64,000 nt of DNA, from assembly GCF_006345805.1 (NCBI RefSeq), contig NC_043006.1, positions 104,780,001 to 104,844,000 on the forward strand, in the 5' to 3' direction. Of the stretch, positions 5,209-59,737 are shown piece by piece. Position 1 is the stretch's first letter, and every line of letters starts with the position of its first letter. The DNA comes from Octopus sinensis (Eukaryota). Under the pieces are notes generated by a model. The model was given only the letters and a program-made list of their open reading frames with translations. It was not told where the DNA came from and did no database searches. Both the position numbers and the translations under genes were made by a program.

Positions 5209-5666
5209 AATGATAAATATCAAAGTGAGTTATATACAGTAGCGGTACACATCGTGACGTATTTTTGCCATTTCAATATGGCTAACCCCATATTTTGAAA
5301 TGGCAAAAATACGTCACGATGTGTTACCGCTACTGTATATAACTCACTTTGATATTTATCATTGTTTGATTTCACTTTTTCAATTTCAGCGACAGTGGAC
5401 GCTGGAAAAAGTATAAGTATTTGTGAAGGAAATCTAATTCTCGGCGACAACTATGATTGTAACACGCTGACGAGAGGTCAATACCTCGAAACTCGAGTCC
5501 GTGTGTATCATAAGTTGAAGACGGGAAGGATGACTTCCCTTTGCAAATACTGACAGGACACAGATAGTGTGTCTATGGCCAGCTGGAGGAGTGTGTCCTC
5601 CTGGGGCTAAAAACTACAGTAGCATCCACCCTTAGGGGTTAGCCATATTGAAATGTCAAAAATACG

Positions 5667-24937: not shown

Positions 24938-25292
24938 AAAGTTTTGATAAATTTGTTCGAAATTTTTACCAGCATCCTCTCTGTCGCCGGGTATAATCTG
25001 CGTCTGCGCAGTGGTCTGAAAAGTTAGGATATACAAGCAGTTAGCTTTACATGTGGATCTGGCTATATGTTTATTTGAAATCTAAAGGCTCTCCCACTGA
25101 TGAAACTGGCCTCCAGCGAATATATTTTTTTGCTGGAAATAGTTAGAAACCATGGTCTGGGAAATAATTGAGATGGTAAACGTTTTTAATTTTCATACCT
25201 TTCGAGAATTTATCCTTATTTGGTGGTTTTGAGTTTTCTACTGTTCTTTCAAGCACAAGGCTTTCCTATTTGGAAGCCTTTCATTGTATTGG
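24938..25292 (+). mobile_element. About 355-nt HHR-bearing element, diverged relative of the 405-nt unit
   Basis: Lies between (TA)n tracts. Shares GATAAATTT..CGGGTAT..TCTG.GTCTGCGCAGTG upstream and GTAAA..GTTTT.AATTTTCAT..AATTTATCC downstream of the HHR with the reverse complement of 54807-55211. Confidence 0.75.
25092..25162 (+). ncRNA. Type I hammerhead ribozyme
   Basis: UCCCA-CUGAUGA-AACU..(UCCAGC/GCUGGA extension)..AGUU-A-GAAA-CCAUGG-UC-UGGGA. One extra A before GAAA; GUC triplet. Confidence 0.8.
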
Positions 25293-27230: not shown

Positions 27231-27951
27231 AATCATCATCATCATTGTTCGACCGTGGTCGAGACAATGGAATTTACTATGTTACGCCAGACTTCACGGT
27301 CCATCATAGCATTACGGAGGTCCTGTTGCTGGATGCCTGTATCCCTGGAGATTACATCAGGGTAGGAGAGTGTGCGCCCTCTGGTATTGCGAGTAGATGG
27401 CTTCCAGAGGAGAAGAGTAGAAATTACTTCTTTTTCAGCTCTACAACAATGTCCAGCAAACTGGACTCTCCTACCTTTCACAAGAGATGACACAGGTGGT
27501 AATTTCCCATATATTTGCATTTTGGTTGGATGGCGCCTCCACGAGAGATTTTGAGCTCTCATAAGGAGGCGAGTGTAGGTTCCATCCAACCGCCTCTCAA
27601 GCTTCTTTGATAACGTCCAGGATTCTGAGCCATATAGTAGAATTGGTTCGACTGTGGCTTTGAAATTTCAAGTTTGAAGTCTCCACTTAGATTTGATGAC
27701 CAGATCTTATGCATGTCATTACAGGCTGACCAGGCCATACCCTTTCTAGTTAGAAAGTCTTTTCCAGATGATGATATGTATGACCCAAGATATTTATAAT
27801 CAGAAACCATATTTAAGGGTGCATTGTTGAGAGTGTGGATGATGCAATCACTGTTGGACAGGCACTTGTTTATGTATTCAGTTTTGGTCTCATTGAGGTA
27901 AAGACCTACACAATTTGAGGCTTGTTCAAGAGATTGTAAAAGAGACTGCAC
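27231..27951 (-). mobile_element. RTE-type LINE, 5'-truncated 3' end with (TGA)n tail, inserted in a SINE
   Basis: GLYLNETKTEY..DYKYLGSYI..RKGMAWSAC and DGTYTRLLMRAQNLSW..RRVQFAGHC..LLLWKP..AMMDREVWR. One frameshift; stop followed by tgatgatga. Confidence 0.88.
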
Positions 27952-28195: not shown

Positions 28196-28615
28196 CTTAT
28201 TTCTTTATTACCCACAAGGGGCTAAACATAGAGGGAGTCAAACAAGGACAGACAAACGGATTAAGTCGATTACATCGACCCCAGTGCGTAACTCGTACTT
28301 AATTTATCGACCCCTAAAGGATGAAAGGCAAAGTCGACCTCGGTGGAATTTGAACTTAGAACGTAACGGCAAACGAAATACCTATTTCTTTACTACCCAC
28401 AAGGGGCTAAACACAGAGGGGACAAACAAGGACAGACAAACGGATTAAGTCGATTATATCGACTCCAGTGCGTAACTGGTACTTATTTAATCGACACCGA
28501 AAGGATGAAAGGCAAAGTGAACCTCGGTGGAATTTGAACTCAGAACGTAGCGGCAGACGAAATACGGATACGCATTTCGCCCGGCGTGCTAACGTTTCTG
28601 CCAGTTCGCCGCCTT
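28196..28615 (-). mobile_element. SINE family C (Meta-domain-like) with an internal ~185-bp tandem duplication
   Basis: GCCTTTCATCCTTTCGGGGTCGATAAATTAAGTACCAG-type core present twice; TSD ATACAGTTT. Confidence 0.85.
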
Positions 28616-39321: not shown

Positions 39322-39945
39322 ATAAGGTGTCGTGGATACATCTGTTTGGGTTAGTGCATGTCTGTGTGTCATTGACCAGCTTATCGACGTCAAGCCTCAA
39401 CCGTGGCTAAAATTTTATAATCTGCATTCAGCAGAGTTATGGGCCTAAAATTGTCTATTTGGTCACCCTTGTTAGGGTGCTTTCTCGGCAGTACCAGCAC
39501 GCCACAGCTCATAGCAAAGGGAATTCTCCCGCTCTGGGGCCAGTTGCTGTCGACATCCGCTAAGAGATCACCGAAAATGCCTGGCATGTGAAAAGAAAGC
39601 TCGAAGGGCAGATGATAGATTCCCGGAAACTGCTCCTTTGTACAACTCGTCATGTCGTTTTGTATGTCTTGGCTGTTATCAGCATTTCTCAGACTTCCAC
39701 ATCCCTGGGCGAATGATACGACATACTGAGGTAGACGATGAGATCCAAACCCGTCACAGACTAATAGATGCGTAGATCTCAAAATCGACGGAAGTATGGG
39801 CCTTATCGAGTGTGTCAGAAATCCTGGTTTCGCTGATGACCGTCCTATCCATAGCTAGTGACCTGAGCGGGTGATCTTGCTTCCAGGGCGACTCCAGGCC
39901 ACAAATATTTATACAACTAACTATTCGACCCGCCACGATCAATGA
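39322..39945 (-). mobile_element. L1/Tx1-clade LINE ORF2 fragment, internally deleted
   Basis: APE start INICGL..VISETRI and RT start GVLVLPRK..FRPITLLNADYKILA. Confidence 0.8.
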
Positions 39946-48730: not shown

Positions 48731-49720
48731 TTACAGAAAAACAAAGGATAAATTCAGGTGTATGAACAACAGCAGGTGTAATAGTTTGACGCTTGGAAAT
48801 ATAAGAAAGTCTTTTACGTCTCGAGCCTACGCTCGTCAACAGAAAGGTATAGGAGAAATTAAACAGGGAGAATTAAAAAAAAAGTTGTGGATTTAGTGAT
48901 CAAGCATGACAACTGGTTCGGAAAAAAGGGTTTGACAGGAAAGGTTGAATGAAGGGGAGATAATAAAGTACTGGTGATCCCCAAAAACAAAGGTGCGCGT
49001 GCGTATGGATAGGGGTTAGTGATTTTGACGTGTGTGTGTGTAAGTGTGTGCGTCTGTAACGTGTGGGTGTATGGATGATGGTGTGTGGGTGTACGGATGA
49101 TGGTATGTGGTGTGAGTGCTGGGAAATGGTCAGTGCTAGTATGTGTGGAATGGTGTGAGGTGGGGTGGGGGTGTTGTGATGTGGTGTTGTGGTGTTTTCT
49201 GAGTATGGGGCTGTGGGCTGGATGTATGGGGTAGGTTGCTGTGTAAGGGGTGAAATGGTGCTGGTGGACGCGGTGGTATCAATGAAGTGAGAAGGTGGGC
49301 AGGAGTGAAAAGAGAAAGTAGGTGTCAGTAGAAGAGGGAAGAGGAAGGGAGTCAATTGAAGAGAGGAGAGGATTTGAGCGCATGTGGCGCAATGGTGTGA
49401 AGAGAGAAGATTAATTTCCTGTTCACAGCGAATGCGAAAGACCGGATGGTCGTTGTGCAAAGACAATCCGAACACTAACAAGTGTATGACCGGTAGAACG
49501 GAAATGGCGCGAGAGCGGGGTGTCATTGCCAGGTTTGATGTCTCGGAGGTGCTCCGCGAGCCGATCAGCCAAGTGGCGTCCCATTTGACCAGTGTACAGA
49601 GAAGGGCTAGAAAATGCAGGAGATACAGTAAATGTCGTTACTAGACGTCCCGTAAAGGATTTAATTATATGATAGAGACGAAGATGGGTGCCTGTGAGGT
49701 GGTGGTGTTGGAGAGGTAGA
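48726..49720 (-). mobile_element. Penelope-like element 3' fragment: GIY-YIG remnant, 3' UTR and decayed HHR (48811-48846)
   Basis: IIKSFT..SLYTGQMGRHLADRLAEHLRDIKPGNDTPLSRHFRSTGH, then LLVFGL..RIRCEQ in another frame. Terminal CUUU-CUGUUGA-C-GAGC(GUAG)GCUC-GAGA-CG-UA-AAAG. Confidence 0.8.
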
Positions 49721-49762
49721 AATAAGTGCAGCAGCCTGTTATAGATGTGTGTGTGTGTGAGC

Positions 49763-49830
<68 letters not shown>

Positions 49831-49833
<3 letters not shown>

Positions 49834-51736
49834 AAGAGCAATAAAGATTCAAGTTAATTTAAATGAATTTACTTGAATATGGTACCTAACTTAGATGCAC
49901 CAAAAAAAAAACTATACTGATTAACAATACAGTAATGTGGGGTGATTATAAGCGAGAAAAGAAGCAACAAGAATGGATAGGTTTTTAGTACGATCGTTTC
50001 ATACAAGGACAGGTTTTATTAAAAGTGCAAAGATTACAGCATATAACGAGTCCCGTACTCATCAGCTAAAATACATGTAAGTTCTCTAGACATCCTAGTG
50101 TTTGAGGCTATACTCATGAAGTAATGTAGATAATTAAGTAACATAAACAGATTTCTAAAGTTCATTAAAGTTCTTAAAGATGATGTACAGTCTTATCACA
50201 GAATTTTAAAAAGTTTTGATAGCATCACAGAGAAGGTGACCTAATCCATATGAATTCCATAGATATGATGAGGGATTATATACCCACAGAAGACAAATTT
50301 ATCCATTGTTAATTACAACGAGGTGGGTCTCAATTCCTGCTTATTAGCATTACAGAGGGGTGAATTAATCCTTTGTATAGATGCACAGATTCCAATGGTG
50401 TAGATGTAAATTCCAGAGAAATGGAGATGAATTTCATATTCACAGGCGATAAATTTTTGAATGGTTGAACACAATGAGGTAGGTATCAATCCTTGTTATA
50501 TGATTAGGTATTTGCCACATTAATCACATTACTGCTATTCACAAGAGGCTGTAGCTATTTAACTCTTAAAGGCTGAAGGGCTTTCTAGATCGGCCAAGAA
50601 TAGAGAAGGGAATAGAAGAAAAGAGATAGAAAATAATGGAGGAGGGAGCAAAAGGGGGGGGGGACTAAAAGAGAAGAGAAAAGGAAACAGAGAATAAGAA
50701 GAAGAAAAAAGAAAAAGAGAAAAAGAGAAAGAAATAGGGACAGAAGGGAAAAAAAGAAAAGAAAAAAAAAGAGGGTTCTAGTTATACAGAAGAGTTAGTA
50801 GACTGCAAGTCTGGTTTTAATCAACAGGCATCTAGGAACTAGAGGAGAATATTATTCTTTGACCAGTAAACGTTAATTTATTGCTGTTGAAATCAGCTAT
50901 GAGTTTAAAGAGAATCTAAAGAAGATAACACAGTCAGGGTTAAGGGGTCAGATGCTAAAATCACCAGAAAATACATTAGGAAAATCTAAGCATAATCTTA
51001 TCAAAAAGTCATTAAAAATTACTTATTTAATTTATTCATTTTATTGTCTTAGGAGTTGTCTATTCCCTTCTCTATTCTTGGCGATCTAGAAAGCCCTTCA
51101 GCCTTTAGAGAGTTAAATAGCTACAGCCTCTTGTGAATAGCAGTAATGTGATTAATGTGGCAAATATCCTAATCATATAACAAGGATTGATACCTACCTC
51201 ATTGTGTTCAACCATTCAAAAAATTATCGCCTGTGAATATGAAATTCATCTCCATTTCTCTGGAAATTACATCTCTACACCATTGGAATCTGTGCATCTC
51301 TATCAAAGGATTAATTCACCCTCTCTGTAATGCTAATAAGCAGGAATTGAGACCCACTCGTTGTTGTAATTAACAATGGATAAATTTGTCTTCTGTGGGT
51401 ATATAAATCCTCATCATATCTATGGAAATTCATATGGATTAGGTCACCTTCTCTGTGATGCTATCAAAACTTTTTTAAAATTCTGTGATAAGACTGTACA
51501 TCATCTTTAAAGAACTTTAATGAACTTTAGAAATCTGTTTATGTTACTTAATTATCTACATTACTTCATGAGTATAGCCTCAAACACTAGGATGTCTTAG
51601 AGAACTTACATGTATTTAGCTAGATGAATGAGGGGACTCGTTTATATGCTGTAATCTTTGCAACTTTTAATAAAACCTGTCCTTGTATGAAACGATCGTA
51701 CTAAAAACCTATCCATTCTTGTTGCTTCTTTCTCGC
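49831..51736. mobile_element. Head-to-head Penelope-like terminal region: ~670-bp inverted arms (49952-50616 / 51059-51736)
   Basis: Arms are reverse complements that differ mostly by 1-nt indels, with a ~440-bp spacer, an HHR in each arm and TA-rich flanks. Confidence 0.75.
49983..50071 (-). ncRNA. Type I hammerhead ribozyme (intact core)
   Basis: UUUUAG-CUGAUGA-GUACGGGAC..GUCCUUGUAU-GAAA-CGAUCG-UA-CUAAAA. The mirror copy at about 51615-51706 has a garbled core. Confidence 0.85.
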
Positions 51737-54754: not shown

Positions 54755-54807
<53 letters not shown>

Positions 54808-54976
54808 AACAAAGTTAAATGCGATACAATAAAATTAATTATAATCGCCGGTGTACCAGTACACGCCATATATTATTCATATATAAATTACATTCAAGGC
54901 GAAGTGTGCACTAGATACACAAAAGCTGGATAAATTTAGTGAGATGAAAATTTAAAACTTTTACAAACTTAGCTTT

Positions 54977-55049
54977 TCTTATACTGCAGTTTCGCCAAAT
55001 TCAGTAATAAAAATAATATTTATTTACTCAGGCTGGCTCTTCAGTAAGA
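54977..55049 (-). ncRNA. Type I hammerhead ribozyme (intact)
   Basis: Minus strand: UCUUA-CUGAAGA-GCCA..UGGC-GAAA-CUGCAG-UA-UAAGA. All core nucleotides present, palindromic helix III, GUA cleavage triplet. Confidence 0.92.
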
Positions 55050-55381
55050 TTCCTGTTAATTGTGGGAAGACCATATTAATAGACCCATGTGCGTCTATTG
55101 AAATGCTCTTTCTAAACTATTCAAAACACTGCGCAGACTCAGAACATACCCGACAAAATAGGGGATTGTGGTATATCGTCTAACGCTCAGAAATTTATCG
55201 AGAGAATATGTAAACAAAGTTAAATGCGATACAATAAAATTAATTATAATCGCCGGTGTACCAGTACACGCCATATATTATTCATATATAAATTACATTC
55301 AAGGCGAAGTGTGCACTAGATACACAAAAGCTGGATAAATTTAGTGAGATGAAAATTAAAATCTTTTACAAACTTAGCTTT

Positions 55382-55453
55382 TCTTATACTGCAGTTTCGC
55401 CAAATTCAGTAATAAAAATAATATTATTTACTCAGGCTGGCTCTTCAGTAAGA
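55382..55453 (-). ncRNA. Type I hammerhead ribozyme (intact, second tandem copy)
   Basis: Same motif as 54977-55049, 405 nt away. Confidence 0.92.
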
Positions 55454-55525
55454 TTCCTGTTAATTATGGGAAGACCATATTAATAGACCCATGTGCGTCT
55501 ATTGAAATGCTCTTTCTAAACTATT

Positions 55526-55576
<51 letters not shown>

Positions 55577-57584: not shown

Positions 57585-57791
57585 GTGAAATAGAAAGATG
57601 AATAATCTTGTAGTAGATTAATCAAAAGTTTAACCGATACCTTAGTAGCAAAAATCACAGCAGTAAACAGCACGGTTGGAGGTACAACCATATGGTGTTG
57701 CAACCGTGCGTTGTTGCGGATAATTGAAATTAAAACATTATTGGTGAATTGAAGAAATGGAGCTGAACGCAGATTGAACAGAAATCGTTTT

Positions 57792-57883
57792 ATTTCATTC
57801 TACACGTGTTTCGAAAGGCACAAATTACCAAAATCCGATTGAATAATGGGACCATATTGTGTCTTTCTCTTGAGGAAGAAAAT
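57792..57883 (-). ncRNA. Hammerhead copy with G5C core mutation (probably inactive)
   Basis: Core reads CUCAAGA instead of CUGAAGA; otherwise matches 59552-59643 and 18464-18554. Confidence 0.7.
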
Positions 57884-58474
57884 AGGAAATCCGTTGGAAA
57901 AACAAAAACAGAACAGAGGCAGAGCAAAAACAAATCGAACTATGCTCCTAAGAGCCCATGGCGAAACTGTTTATCAGTGTATGTTGAGAACCGGTGGCTG
58001 AAGAATTTAACGGGTCAGGCATCGGTCAATCATGTGGGTGAGGGTGTGTAGGTGTTCTTTGTGACCGAGAATAAAGTTCTGACTATTTAAGGAATATTGG
58101 ATGTTTGATAAGGGGCGAGAAAAAATCTACTTAGAGACGTGTGTGTGTGTGTGTATACTGTTCTATATATGTGTGTTGGCGTAGGGGTAGAAAACATTTT
58201 TTGTGTACATGTGTGCGTTTGATCGTTCGGCTGTCAGTGGCTACTGCCGTCAGAACCGTTGGGTGGCAGAAAAAAATATATATATATATTATGTTTTATG
58301 TGTGTGTGTGTTCATCTAAGCCTGCCTTGTCAAGGAAACCCCCCGCTGTGAAAAAACCAAGCGCCGTTTGTCTTACAGGAGTAATTCCCCTTGCAGTGGC
58401 TAATCGTAGATATCTTAAAGGCTATTTCAGAATTTGTTACCAAGGGCTATGGGTGCCGGTATTATTTATAAACG

Positions 58475-59503
58475 CTATTTAAAAGCCAGATAAGTGTAGC
58501 GCCGCCAATGGGGGCATCGAAAAGCCGACTGTAAAAGCCCGTTTACCATCCGGCCTCTGGCAAACAAAATATGGAAGAGTTCGGAGACACAAAGGTTGCA
58601 CTGCCTTCTGCCCCTATCAAATGGGAGGGCCACCGACAAAATTGACCATTGCAGCCTATAGCTTAAGTTCGTATCCTTCAGTCGCCATATTAGCTTACTG
58701 AGTCCCGTGGTCTGGCGCTTGTTCACGTCCCGAAAAGTTGCGTAATGGTTGGAGACACGCAAAGACAATCTTGAGGATGAGGCCCCTACATAAGTGAAGA
58801 CATCTGTGTCCGTGTAAACCTTGCATTGGTAGACGGCGTTTTTGATCTTGGAGTTCGCCGACGTGAATCTTATTCTGCTAGGATTAGTTTCTGAAATTAG
58901 AACTGCGTTCCTGTCACTATATTCGTTCCGAGACCTGCAGCCGCTTACTACTCTATTTTCCACTACGTCACTATTAACTATAGGAATAACCCCTGATTCT
59001 CCACTATCTATCAGAGTGCTGTCATTGCTACTGCCCGTGGTGCTGCTATTGCGGGAAATGATGCTGGGGATGCTATTGGGGCTCTCTACCCTACTCCCAT
59101 TGTTACCGTCAACCACAACACCCCTATTTATAACTATACCCCTAGTGGGTACTCCCTGGCTGGAGCTGAGATTATGTGTCACTGTACTGGCTCTCATATC
59201 ATTATTACTACTATAACTATTCCTACTGAGCATTAAACCGGGAGCGGAAGAGGCTGTGCCTCCGGAAAAAGGTGATAGGGTCTTAGTAAGTAGCCTATTA
59301 TTATGGGAGGCGATTATCTGGGCGAGGTTTTTAGTGTTGGAGAAAGCTATCCTAACTTTATGCGAGTTAACCGTGGAGTAATATTTGGAATTTCTGGGGA
59401 AGTTATTGGCGATGGCTTGTCTAAACATGAGGGGGAGGTTAGTTCTAATCTGCTTACCAAAGGGGATTACAAACCATATATGCTTATTCCTATCAGTGTG
59501 ATG
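58475..59503 (-). CDS. Penelope-like element ORF, C-terminal part: RT thumb/linker plus GIY-YIG endonuclease (5'-truncated, frame still open)
   Basis: HIWFVIPFGKQIRTN..NNFP..KVRIAFSNTKNLAQIIASHN linker; AVYQCKV..YVGASS..RVSNHYATF..TGLSKLIWRLK..W.IL..CNLCVSE..CPH endonuclease. The first ~31 aa of the 373-aa ORF call come from the inverted pLTR and start at TTG. Confidence 0.85.
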   Translation of the reverse strand, partial: HHTDRNKHIWFVIPFGKQIRTNLPLMFRQAIANNFPRNSKYYSTVNSHKVRIAFSNTKNLAQIIASHNNRLLTKTLSPFSGGTASSAPGLMLSRNSYSSNNDMRASTVTHNLSSSQGVPTRGIVINRGVVVDGNNGSRVESPNSIPSIISRNSSTTGSSNDSTLIDSGESGVIPIVNSDVVENRVVSGCRSRNEYSDRNAVLISETNPSRIRFTSANSKIKNAVYQCKVYTDTDVFTYVGASSSRLSLRVSNHYATFRDVNKRQTTGLSKLIWRLKDTNLSYRLQWSILSVALPFDRGRRQCNLCVSELFHILFARGRMVNGLLQSAFRCPHWRRYTYLAFK

Positions 59504-59551
59504 GTTTTTGCTCCGCCTCTGTTCTGTTTTTGTTTTTCCAACGGATTTCCT

Positions 59552-59643
59552 ATTTTCTTCCTGAAGAGAAAAACACAATATGGTCCCATTATTCAATCGG
59601 ATTTTGGTAATTTGTGCCTTTCGAAACGCGTGTAGAATGAAAT
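59552..59643 (+). ncRNA. Type I hammerhead ribozyme in the inverted pLTR (intact core)
   Basis: UUC-CUGAAGA-GAAA..ACACAA..UUGUGC..UUUC-GAAA-CGCGUG-UA-GAA. Confidence 0.8.
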
Positions 59644-59699
59644 AAAACGATTTCTGTTCAATCTGCGTTCAGCTCCATTTCTTCAATTCACCAATAATG

Positions 59700-59737
<38 letters not shown>

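Follow-up and report, generated by a model that had tools for sequence, protein, structure and literature searches.

Tandem hammerhead units in (TA)n tracts of the Octopus sinensis genome: a probable non-autonomous Penelope-like family of the non-LTR retrozyme type

What kind of element is a short tandem repeat that has a hammerhead motif in each unit, encodes no protein and lies within a TA microsatellite? The question is raised by an array on the minus strand of a 64,000-nt stretch of the Octopus sinensis genome (contig NC_043006.1, positions 104,780,001 to 104,844,000), which is called the window here and in whose coordinates its features are given. It touches a wider question of the field, namely whether RNA circles are copied by the enzymes of Penelope-like elements (PLEs) and what purpose the hammerhead serves (PMC4209133; PMC7229834; PMC11167929). 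An original prediction had described the array as an intact dimeric 405-nt retrozyme, and had named tandem pLTRs of a longer Penelope element as the alternative.

The insertion and its hammerhead motifs

The insertion occupies 54807..55529 on the minus strand. It is a 723-nt array of 1.79 head-to-tail units, which is 5'-truncated at unit position r85, ends at the fixed 3' end of its family and is bracketed by (AT)n tracts at 54757-54805 and 55529-55573. Read as (TA)n, with no strand assigned, the target microsatellite on the element's 3' side covers 54757..54806, and the tract on the 5' side (55530..55573) is the other half of the target. The array (locus L002) consists of a complete 3'-most unit (54807..55209, minus strand; r1-r403, from fixed end to fixed end) and an upstream partial unit (55210..55529, minus strand; r85-r405), which are three substitutions and one indel apart over the approximately 320 nt in common. 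Owing to the single indel, one side has a period of 404 and the other a period of 405, and the distance from predicted cut site to predicted cut site is exactly 405 nt (55386-54982). The predicted cut-to-cut monomer (54982..55386, minus strand, 405 nt) is ORF-less, the longest stop-free stretch of the unit being 98 codons in any frame, and its fold is only somewhat better than those of shuffles (z of -1.9 linear and -1.8 circular). The original prediction of 1.8 near-identical tandem copies of an ORF-less 405-nt unit in (TA)n, with predicted GUA cuts exactly 405 nt apart (N17 of the two hammerheads at 55387 and 54982), was borne out. That of an intact dimeric element was not: the locus is one 5'-truncated insertion of a young dispersed family (family A), whose arrays hold about 0.5-9 units, and is neither a defined dimer nor a pLTR of a longer element.

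An internal ATAT-like site (T|ACATAT, 55206..55212, minus strand) is the end point of nearly all genomic copies and may be the site of priming; in the last unit, it corresponds to the junction at 54807 (minus strand). There is also an imperfect internal inverted repeat, or hairpin, at 55067..55110 and again at 55471-55514 (no strand assigned). Adjoining the counterpart of the hairpin at 55067..55110 is the fold-back point of a chimeric copy, L078, which is described below. An unplaced contig (G000:C10300) duplicates the array, a family-C copy and a PLE piece of the window at 100% identity, and is probably an assembly duplicate.

On the minus strand, each copy contains helix I (UCUUA/UAAGA), the core CUGAAGA, helix II (GCCA/UGGC), which closes an AU-rich extension of 35-36 nt, then GAAA, a helix III of 2 bp within the palindrome ACUGCAGU, and a GUA triplet. 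In hammerhead 1 (55382..55453, minus strand; predicted cut 55387|55386), helix I pairs 55453-55449 with 55386-55382, and is followed by the core at 55448-55442, helix II at 55441-55399, GAAA at 55398-55395 and the palindrome at 55395-55388. Hammerhead 2 (54977..55049, minus strand; predicted cut 54982|54981) has the same layout. Each is of type I, that is, a CUGANGA core, GAAA and NUH are joined by three helices and helix I is open, and the motif occurred in none of 5000 dinucleotide shuffles of the unit, both strands considered. A scan with Rfam gave no hammerhead match at the gathering score or at E<=10, and the matches at E<=10 were all below the gathering score and mostly from the TA tracts. 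The long insert in helix II is the likely cause of this miss, and a library match is no part of the biochemical definition of a hammerhead. Consequently, the word "perfect" that had been applied to the two motifs holds for their core and helices, which are complete, and fails with regard to the library. "Minimal", in the sense of PMC4209133, does not fit, since helix III is small and palindromic but helix II is long.

As for folding, the monomer circle is predicted to form helix II (P about 0.92), while the core is blocked by UACUG:CAGUA pairing (P 0.70-0.87). No active fold is the energy minimum, the penalty being 7.9-8.6 kcal/mol for a single hammerhead and 12.7 kcal/mol for the double form; the double hammerhead is only 3.2 kcal/mol better than two single ones and 12.7 kcal/mol above the free ensemble, all of these being energies that leave out tertiary contacts.

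Copies of the family and its relatives in the genome

The genome (G000; 2.72 Gb, 13,516 contigs) was searched with the unit, which gave at least 157 matches from the 40 scored of 798 candidates. The exact 21-nt ribozyme motif occurs 305 times, compared with 0 for the reversed control, and for the exact 3' junction into (TA)n the genome-wide count is 186. The similarity search yielded 39 loci, one of which duplicates the window on the unplaced contig, leaving 38 distinct arrays; another 20 insertions in 19 loci were taken from isolated ribozyme cores among the first 100 listed.

In all 38 distinct arrays the 3' end lies at one point, 174-177 nt past the cut site, with TA repeats beyond it; in 24 of them TA repeats also form a tract on the 5' side. 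For the further insertions with a visible 3' end, 17/19 end at the fixed point or no more than 7 nt from it; the two exceptions are L073, which ends at another internal ATAT run, and the chimeric L078. The 5' ends, by comparison, are spread from r3 to r379. The circularly permuted start points that had been expected are thus seen at the scattered 5' side only, the 3' end being fixed. Past the fixed end, the unit continues with ACATAT. Target-site duplications, which in non-LTR retrozymes exceed 4 bp when present, are masked by the (TA)n flanks, and the units are 94-99% alike across chromosomes. Two neighbouring pairs were seen as well: two separate family-A insertions lie 1.3 kb apart in L063, and in L043 (G000:C19, about 4,596,900-4,598,150) an inverted insertion of a second family, B, lies beside a family-A array in one TA tract.

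Features of a non-LTR retrozyme, namely consecutive non-coding units of about 150-450 bp, each with a type-I hammerhead, in a dispersed, multicopy and ORF-less repeat, are thus found together with those of a non-autonomous PLE, namely a 3' end that is fixed and lies downstream of the hammerhead, copies that are 5'-truncated, tandem or inverted arrangements and microsatellite targets. We consider it highly probable that family A belongs with the non-LTR retrozymes and is a non-autonomous Penelope-like retroelement. The fixed 3' end, the scattered 5' ends and the TA targets support Penelope-type copying by internal priming, in keeping with the copying by a Penelope-like reverse transcriptase that had been proposed for this array.

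Two sister families were compared with family A. Family B has 99 exact cores in the genome, and 28 distinct loci were examined; family C, with a repeat unit of about 453 nt, has 1664 candidates genome-wide. In A and B, the monomers from cut to cut measure 398-433 nt, are ORF-less and are 74-98% identical. The CUGANGA half is intact in 124/127 motifs of A and 31/33 motifs of B scored, N7 being variable in B; only this 5' half counts as a test, since family B was picked on the 3' half of the motif, and the scan took motifs with no more than one core mismatch, which leaves out heavily decayed copies. From A to B, helix II changes from GCCA/UGGC to GUCU/AGAC, with an A-C mismatch at its base in many B copies, while family C has UCCCA/UGGGA as helix I and CCAUGG as the helix III palindrome, so that helices I-III all show compensatory paired changes between the three families. 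Other hammerheads have CUCGAG and CGAUCG (both in the window) or CAAUUG (in L078) as helix III palindromes. Dimeric folding predicts that the palindrome is kept while its letters change (PMC4209133), and the palindromic helix III with letters that differ between families thus lends indirect support to cleavage of the dimer type. A second 3' end of family B lies about 107 nt past the cut, where there is another ATAT run. B and C copies often have inverted 5'-truncated partners, a hallmark of PLEs (Craig et al. 2021, bioRxiv 10.1101/2021.04.23.441226).

Other hammerheads occur in the window itself. A family-C copy lies at 24940-25292 (plus strand; core 25097-25103, palindrome CCAUGG, predicted cut after 25157), with TA repeats on its flanks and one additional A ahead of GAAA. 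A compact type-I hammerhead of another family, with helix II GAGG/CCUC, CUCGAG and N17 at 5499, is found at 5461-5505 (plus strand), within about 460 nt between TA tracts, the ends of which stretch are mutual inverted copies. Another type-I hammerhead, at 49983-50071 (minus strand), has CGAUCG, a long helix II insert and N17 at 49989, with a (TA)n tract about 160 nt downstream. In addition, Tandem Repeats Finder reports a unit of 184 nt at 28198-28565, in two tandem copies that are 91% alike.

The template of the copies

How, then, could such copies arise? In the mechanism that we propose, tandem copies would be transcribed in the hammerhead sense, and neighbouring hammerheads would pair through their ACUGCAGU palindromes and cut, giving unit-length and multi-unit RNAs. 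By analogy with known retrozymes, a host ligase would close the released RNAs into circles, and a circle of a lone unit would be kept closed by the computed UACUG:CAGUA block of its core. A (TA)n tract would be nicked by an autonomous PLE that targets TA, probably one of the Neptune type, and reverse transcription would start within the RNA, primed at the ATAT-like site that lies 174-177 nt past the cut, presumably by microhomology between the nicked target and this site. Copying across the rejoined cut site for a variable distance would give arrays that hold about 0.5-9 units and combine a single 3' end with scattered 5' ends. As a whole, from dimer cleavage through circles to PLE-primed copying at the internal site into (TA)n, we hold this mechanism to be probable on balance.

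The position of the fixed end restricts the template. Since it is not at the cut site, any copy longer than 177 nt spans the cut site, and the template must have been either uncut or rejoined; a linear monomer that had been cut would allow short copies only, since priming lies 177 nt downstream of the cut. Just four copies in a TA flank have their start at the cut site, compared with about 0.9 expected by a hand estimate if 5' ends were uniform (186 x 24/38 x 3/405). A slight excess of starts at the cut site is therefore possible, but run-off from linear RNA that had been cut is not how the copies mainly arose.

The variants within arrays were examined in 94 full units. Among variants occurring in more than one array, 69 cases are present in all covering units and 10 in some units, which favours a single repeated template, most of the 69 being subfamily markers that a homogeneous master array would give too; among variants private to one array, 8 are in every unit, which points the same way, and 14 in some units only, which speaks against it. 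Two nine-unit arrays show a higher-order periodicity of variants, with period 4 in L031 (G000:C7:75725531-75729102) and period 2 in L032 (G000:C9571:47782-51440). In the window's subfamily, three of the five multi-unit arrays (L002, L003 and L009) are mosaic, that is, their units share variants with differing arrays, and mosaic arrays do not come from copying one monomer circle. Multimeric circles, template switching, gene conversion, duplication at the DNA level or assembly polishing could each cause the mosaics and periodicities. Such variants do not separate a circular from a linear template, and polishing may blur tandem arrays.

Contigs from 4 of 24 sequencing runs, none of them recorded as RNA, were also examined; the ends of molecules are not visible in such contigs. 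Run X3, whose RNA nature is a guess and which may be DNA, contains one closed 404-nt contig with the whole unit, permuted and with no loose ends, and run X17, which bears another organism label and whose RNA nature is likewise guessed, contains a unit-length contig of 425 nt; the depth of both is 6-7, and circles, tandem transcripts or DNA would equally give a closed contig. Run X1 contains fragments that include the unit junction.

The chimeric copy L078 (G000:C3:162237500-162242500) bears on transcription. It contains the unit's hammerhead portion (r94-r236) with its cut site uncut; joined to this, 8 nt beyond that site, are four host pieces that map to separate places over 44 kb of another contig (G000:C4:43455051-43499483). 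Downstream of these come the hammerhead-bearing end of another pLTR-like repeat and then (TA)n, and all of this is present in an inverted pair. AG acceptors and GT donors accompany the host pieces. A host acceptor coincides exactly with the first junction, at which position the majority subfamily of family A has GT. The copy looks like a linear transcript that started in a family-A copy, was spliced and then was retroposed by way of the downstream pLTR; this suggests germ-line transcription in the hammerhead sense and a lone hammerhead that survives uncut. This reading concerns one event only, and no family-A source copy was found in the 120 kb upstream of the first host exon or, for contig C4, among the listed exact matches to the core and the end; template switching, or a source copy missing from the assembly, is a possible alternative.

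Could the template be an uncut linear multi-unit transcript of a master array, copied with the same internal priming by a PLE but with no abundant circle? The hammerhead would then cut rarely, cut only with the help of a protein, or serve another step such as the trimming of read-through RNA. This explanation deserves serious attention, although we think it somewhat improbable. It agrees with the mosaic arrays of the window's subfamily, with the hammerhead kept uncut in the spliced retrocopy L078 and with the unfavourable energies of the active folds. It also agrees with the data reported for the Poseidon PLE of Anolis (PAc), where uncut RNA is the main substrate with no reads ending at the cut site (PMC11167929), and with a preprint in which one of nine predicted dimers cleaved in vitro and eight did not (Li, Clavereau & Pollet 2026, bioRxiv 10.64898/2026.07.22.740005). 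However, it gives a poorer account of the core and the palindromic helix III being kept over about 25% divergence in ORF-less units. In addition, position-tied variants common to arrays are rare (10 partial versus 69 whole-array cases), with which homogeneous masters are also compatible.

Long arrays may instead have grown after insertion, in the manner of minisatellites, by unequal crossing-over of short retrotransposed insertions of up to about two units. The period 4 of L031, the period 2 of L032, the private variants common to neighbouring units in L018 and L038, and the local tandem amplification proposed in bioRxiv 10.64898/2026.07.22.740005 are in its favour. Nevertheless, we regard it as unlikely, and it can add to the best explanation rather than replace it: a tandem seed is needed, which itself must come from a junction-spanning template, and units that are 94-99% alike across chromosomes leave little time for growth of arrays at the DNA level.

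Returning to cleaved and rejoined templates, a more specific proposal can be put forward tentatively. The arrays may be the footprint of rolling-circle reverse transcription from one ATAT-like site on monomeric and multimeric circles, in an ORF-less lineage that would long have been apart from any master element, would have been selected for a dimer-gated ribozyme and could act as a first exon, spliced to host exons and retroposed along with them, as in L078. If true, this would explain the whole-array variants as well as the period-2 and period-4 arrays, and would make the circle-template model of PLEs and retrozymes directly testable from junction sequences.

Penelope-like elements, known systems and implications

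Which element would provide the enzyme? No contiguous PLE ORF in sense was found at any of the 58 family-A insertions or 28 family-B loci, which agrees with the non-LTR-retrozyme type of unit originally predicted, and the PLE fragments that three probes from the genome detected near family-A insertions are on the opposite strand or past the TA tracts. An autonomous partner with a related pLTR was found neither through two PLE protein queries nor through families B and C. The unit had no match among 42 loci of two PLE families (L051-L062, L082, L094-L122), these being two of many; each protein search gave about 18,000 candidates. A Neptune-like GIY-YIG family in the genome has the unit's layout, that is, a hammerhead-like motif, about 190 nt and then (TA)n, but its pLTR does not match the unit. 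The PLE label is based on motifs, plus an Atlas feature match to GIY-YIG clusters for the piece in L078; Pfam has no family for the PLE pieces. The name Neptune was given from the CX2-5CxxC motif (Craig et al. 2021, bioRxiv 10.1101/2021.04.23.441226).

The window holds a 5'-truncated and partly inverted PLE piece of a young family at 57730-59700, with a GIY-YIG-type end at 58475-59668 (minus strand). The proteins of this family are 96-100% identical among 150 scored copies, with frames of up to 923 codons (L082), and its long 3' region holds an inverted copy of part of the element at 12/12 loci. A link between this GIY-YIG remnant and the array was considered and rejected, as the remnant lies 2.9 kb upstream of the array with several microsatellites between them, and the 3' region of its family is without match to the unit. 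Three short frames could, judged by eye, derive from other retroelements: one GIY-YIG-like at 49423-49830 (minus strand), with no Pfam match, and two resembling the reverse transcriptase of non-LTR elements at 27242-27951 and 39390-39854 (minus strand).

That the arrays are tandem pLTRs, 3' remnants of an ordinary autonomous PLE with an RT-GIY-YIG ORF, is very improbable and largely refuted for these copies: although a hammerhead, 170-200 nt and a fixed end in TA form the layout of a pLTR, and the sister families contain inverted 5'-truncated pairs typical of PLEs, the sequence upstream of any full unit in multi-unit copies is always another unit and never the end of an ORF, none of the 58 insertions is joined to a reverse transcriptase or endonuclease ORF, and the PLE family represented by the remnant in the window differs from the unit in its 3' region.

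Both the retrozyme class and its link to PLEs have already been published (PMC7229834; bioRxiv 10.64898/2026.07.22.740005). Metazoan non-LTR retrozymes have units of 220-245 nt in coral, about 350-390 nt in mussel and 330/350 nt in axolotl (Cervera & de la Pena 2020, PMC7229834). Like them, family A consists of ORF-less, low-GC tandem units of a few hundred nt with one type-I hammerhead each, a 2-bp helix III with a tetraloop, no LTR, PBS or PPT seen, and co-existing PLEs. Cleavage and circles have been demonstrated for those retrozymes and are predicted for family A, and the 35-36-nt extension of helix II is a difference. No description of (TA)n sites with a fixed 3' end away from the cut and scattered 5' ends was found in PMC7229834, the main text of which contains the word "microsatellite" 0 times and names no cephalopod. 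A description of a cephalopod retrozyme was not found among the papers that literature searches listed, and the supplements of PMC7229834 and of the 2026 preprint may list one.

That preprint, with 31 vertebrates, 3 insects and 1 coral sampled, argues that non-LTR retrozymes descend from PLEs as non-autonomous elements, and 24/57 Xenopus families were tied by sequence to known repeats, nearly all of them PLEs (bioRxiv 10.64898/2026.07.22.740005). Family A resembles the retrozymes described there in its tandem type-I hammerhead units, mostly no more than seven, in the PLEs of the same genome and in a pLTR-like origin; unlike those Xenopus families, it has no match to a partner pLTR and forms a graded ORF-less lineage of its own (74-98% identity). 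In PAc, reverse transcription starts internally, downstream of the hammerhead, and hammerhead cleavage is dispensable for insertion in vitro (Frangieh et al. 2024, PMC11167929). A fixed internal start past the hammerhead that sets the genomic 3' end, AT-rich targets and tandem organization are common to PAc and family A. However, PAc is autonomous and its start site is reported to be non-homologous to the cut DNA, while family A is ORF-less and ends at ATAT-like sites resembling its TA target. With the Neptune and Naiad PLEs (bioRxiv 10.1101/2021.04.23.441226) it shares insertion into microsatellites, which hides target-site duplications, and tandem and inverted 5'-truncated structures; those elements encode a reverse transcriptase and an endonuclease, family A encodes neither, and Naiads are without hammerheads.

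One more host lineage for a known class is a modest gain. What family A adds is junction evidence for internal priming, a graded ORF-less lineage and a spliced chimera. As its copies are young and nearly identical, their junctions constrain the mechanism, with a 3' end that is internal rather than at the ribozyme cut. A 405-nt unit with a defined fixed end, a (TA)n target and a predicted switch from an inactive monomer to an active dimer is also a convenient test substrate. For the host, the spliced chimera suggests that promoters or first exons of its transcripts can come from such units.
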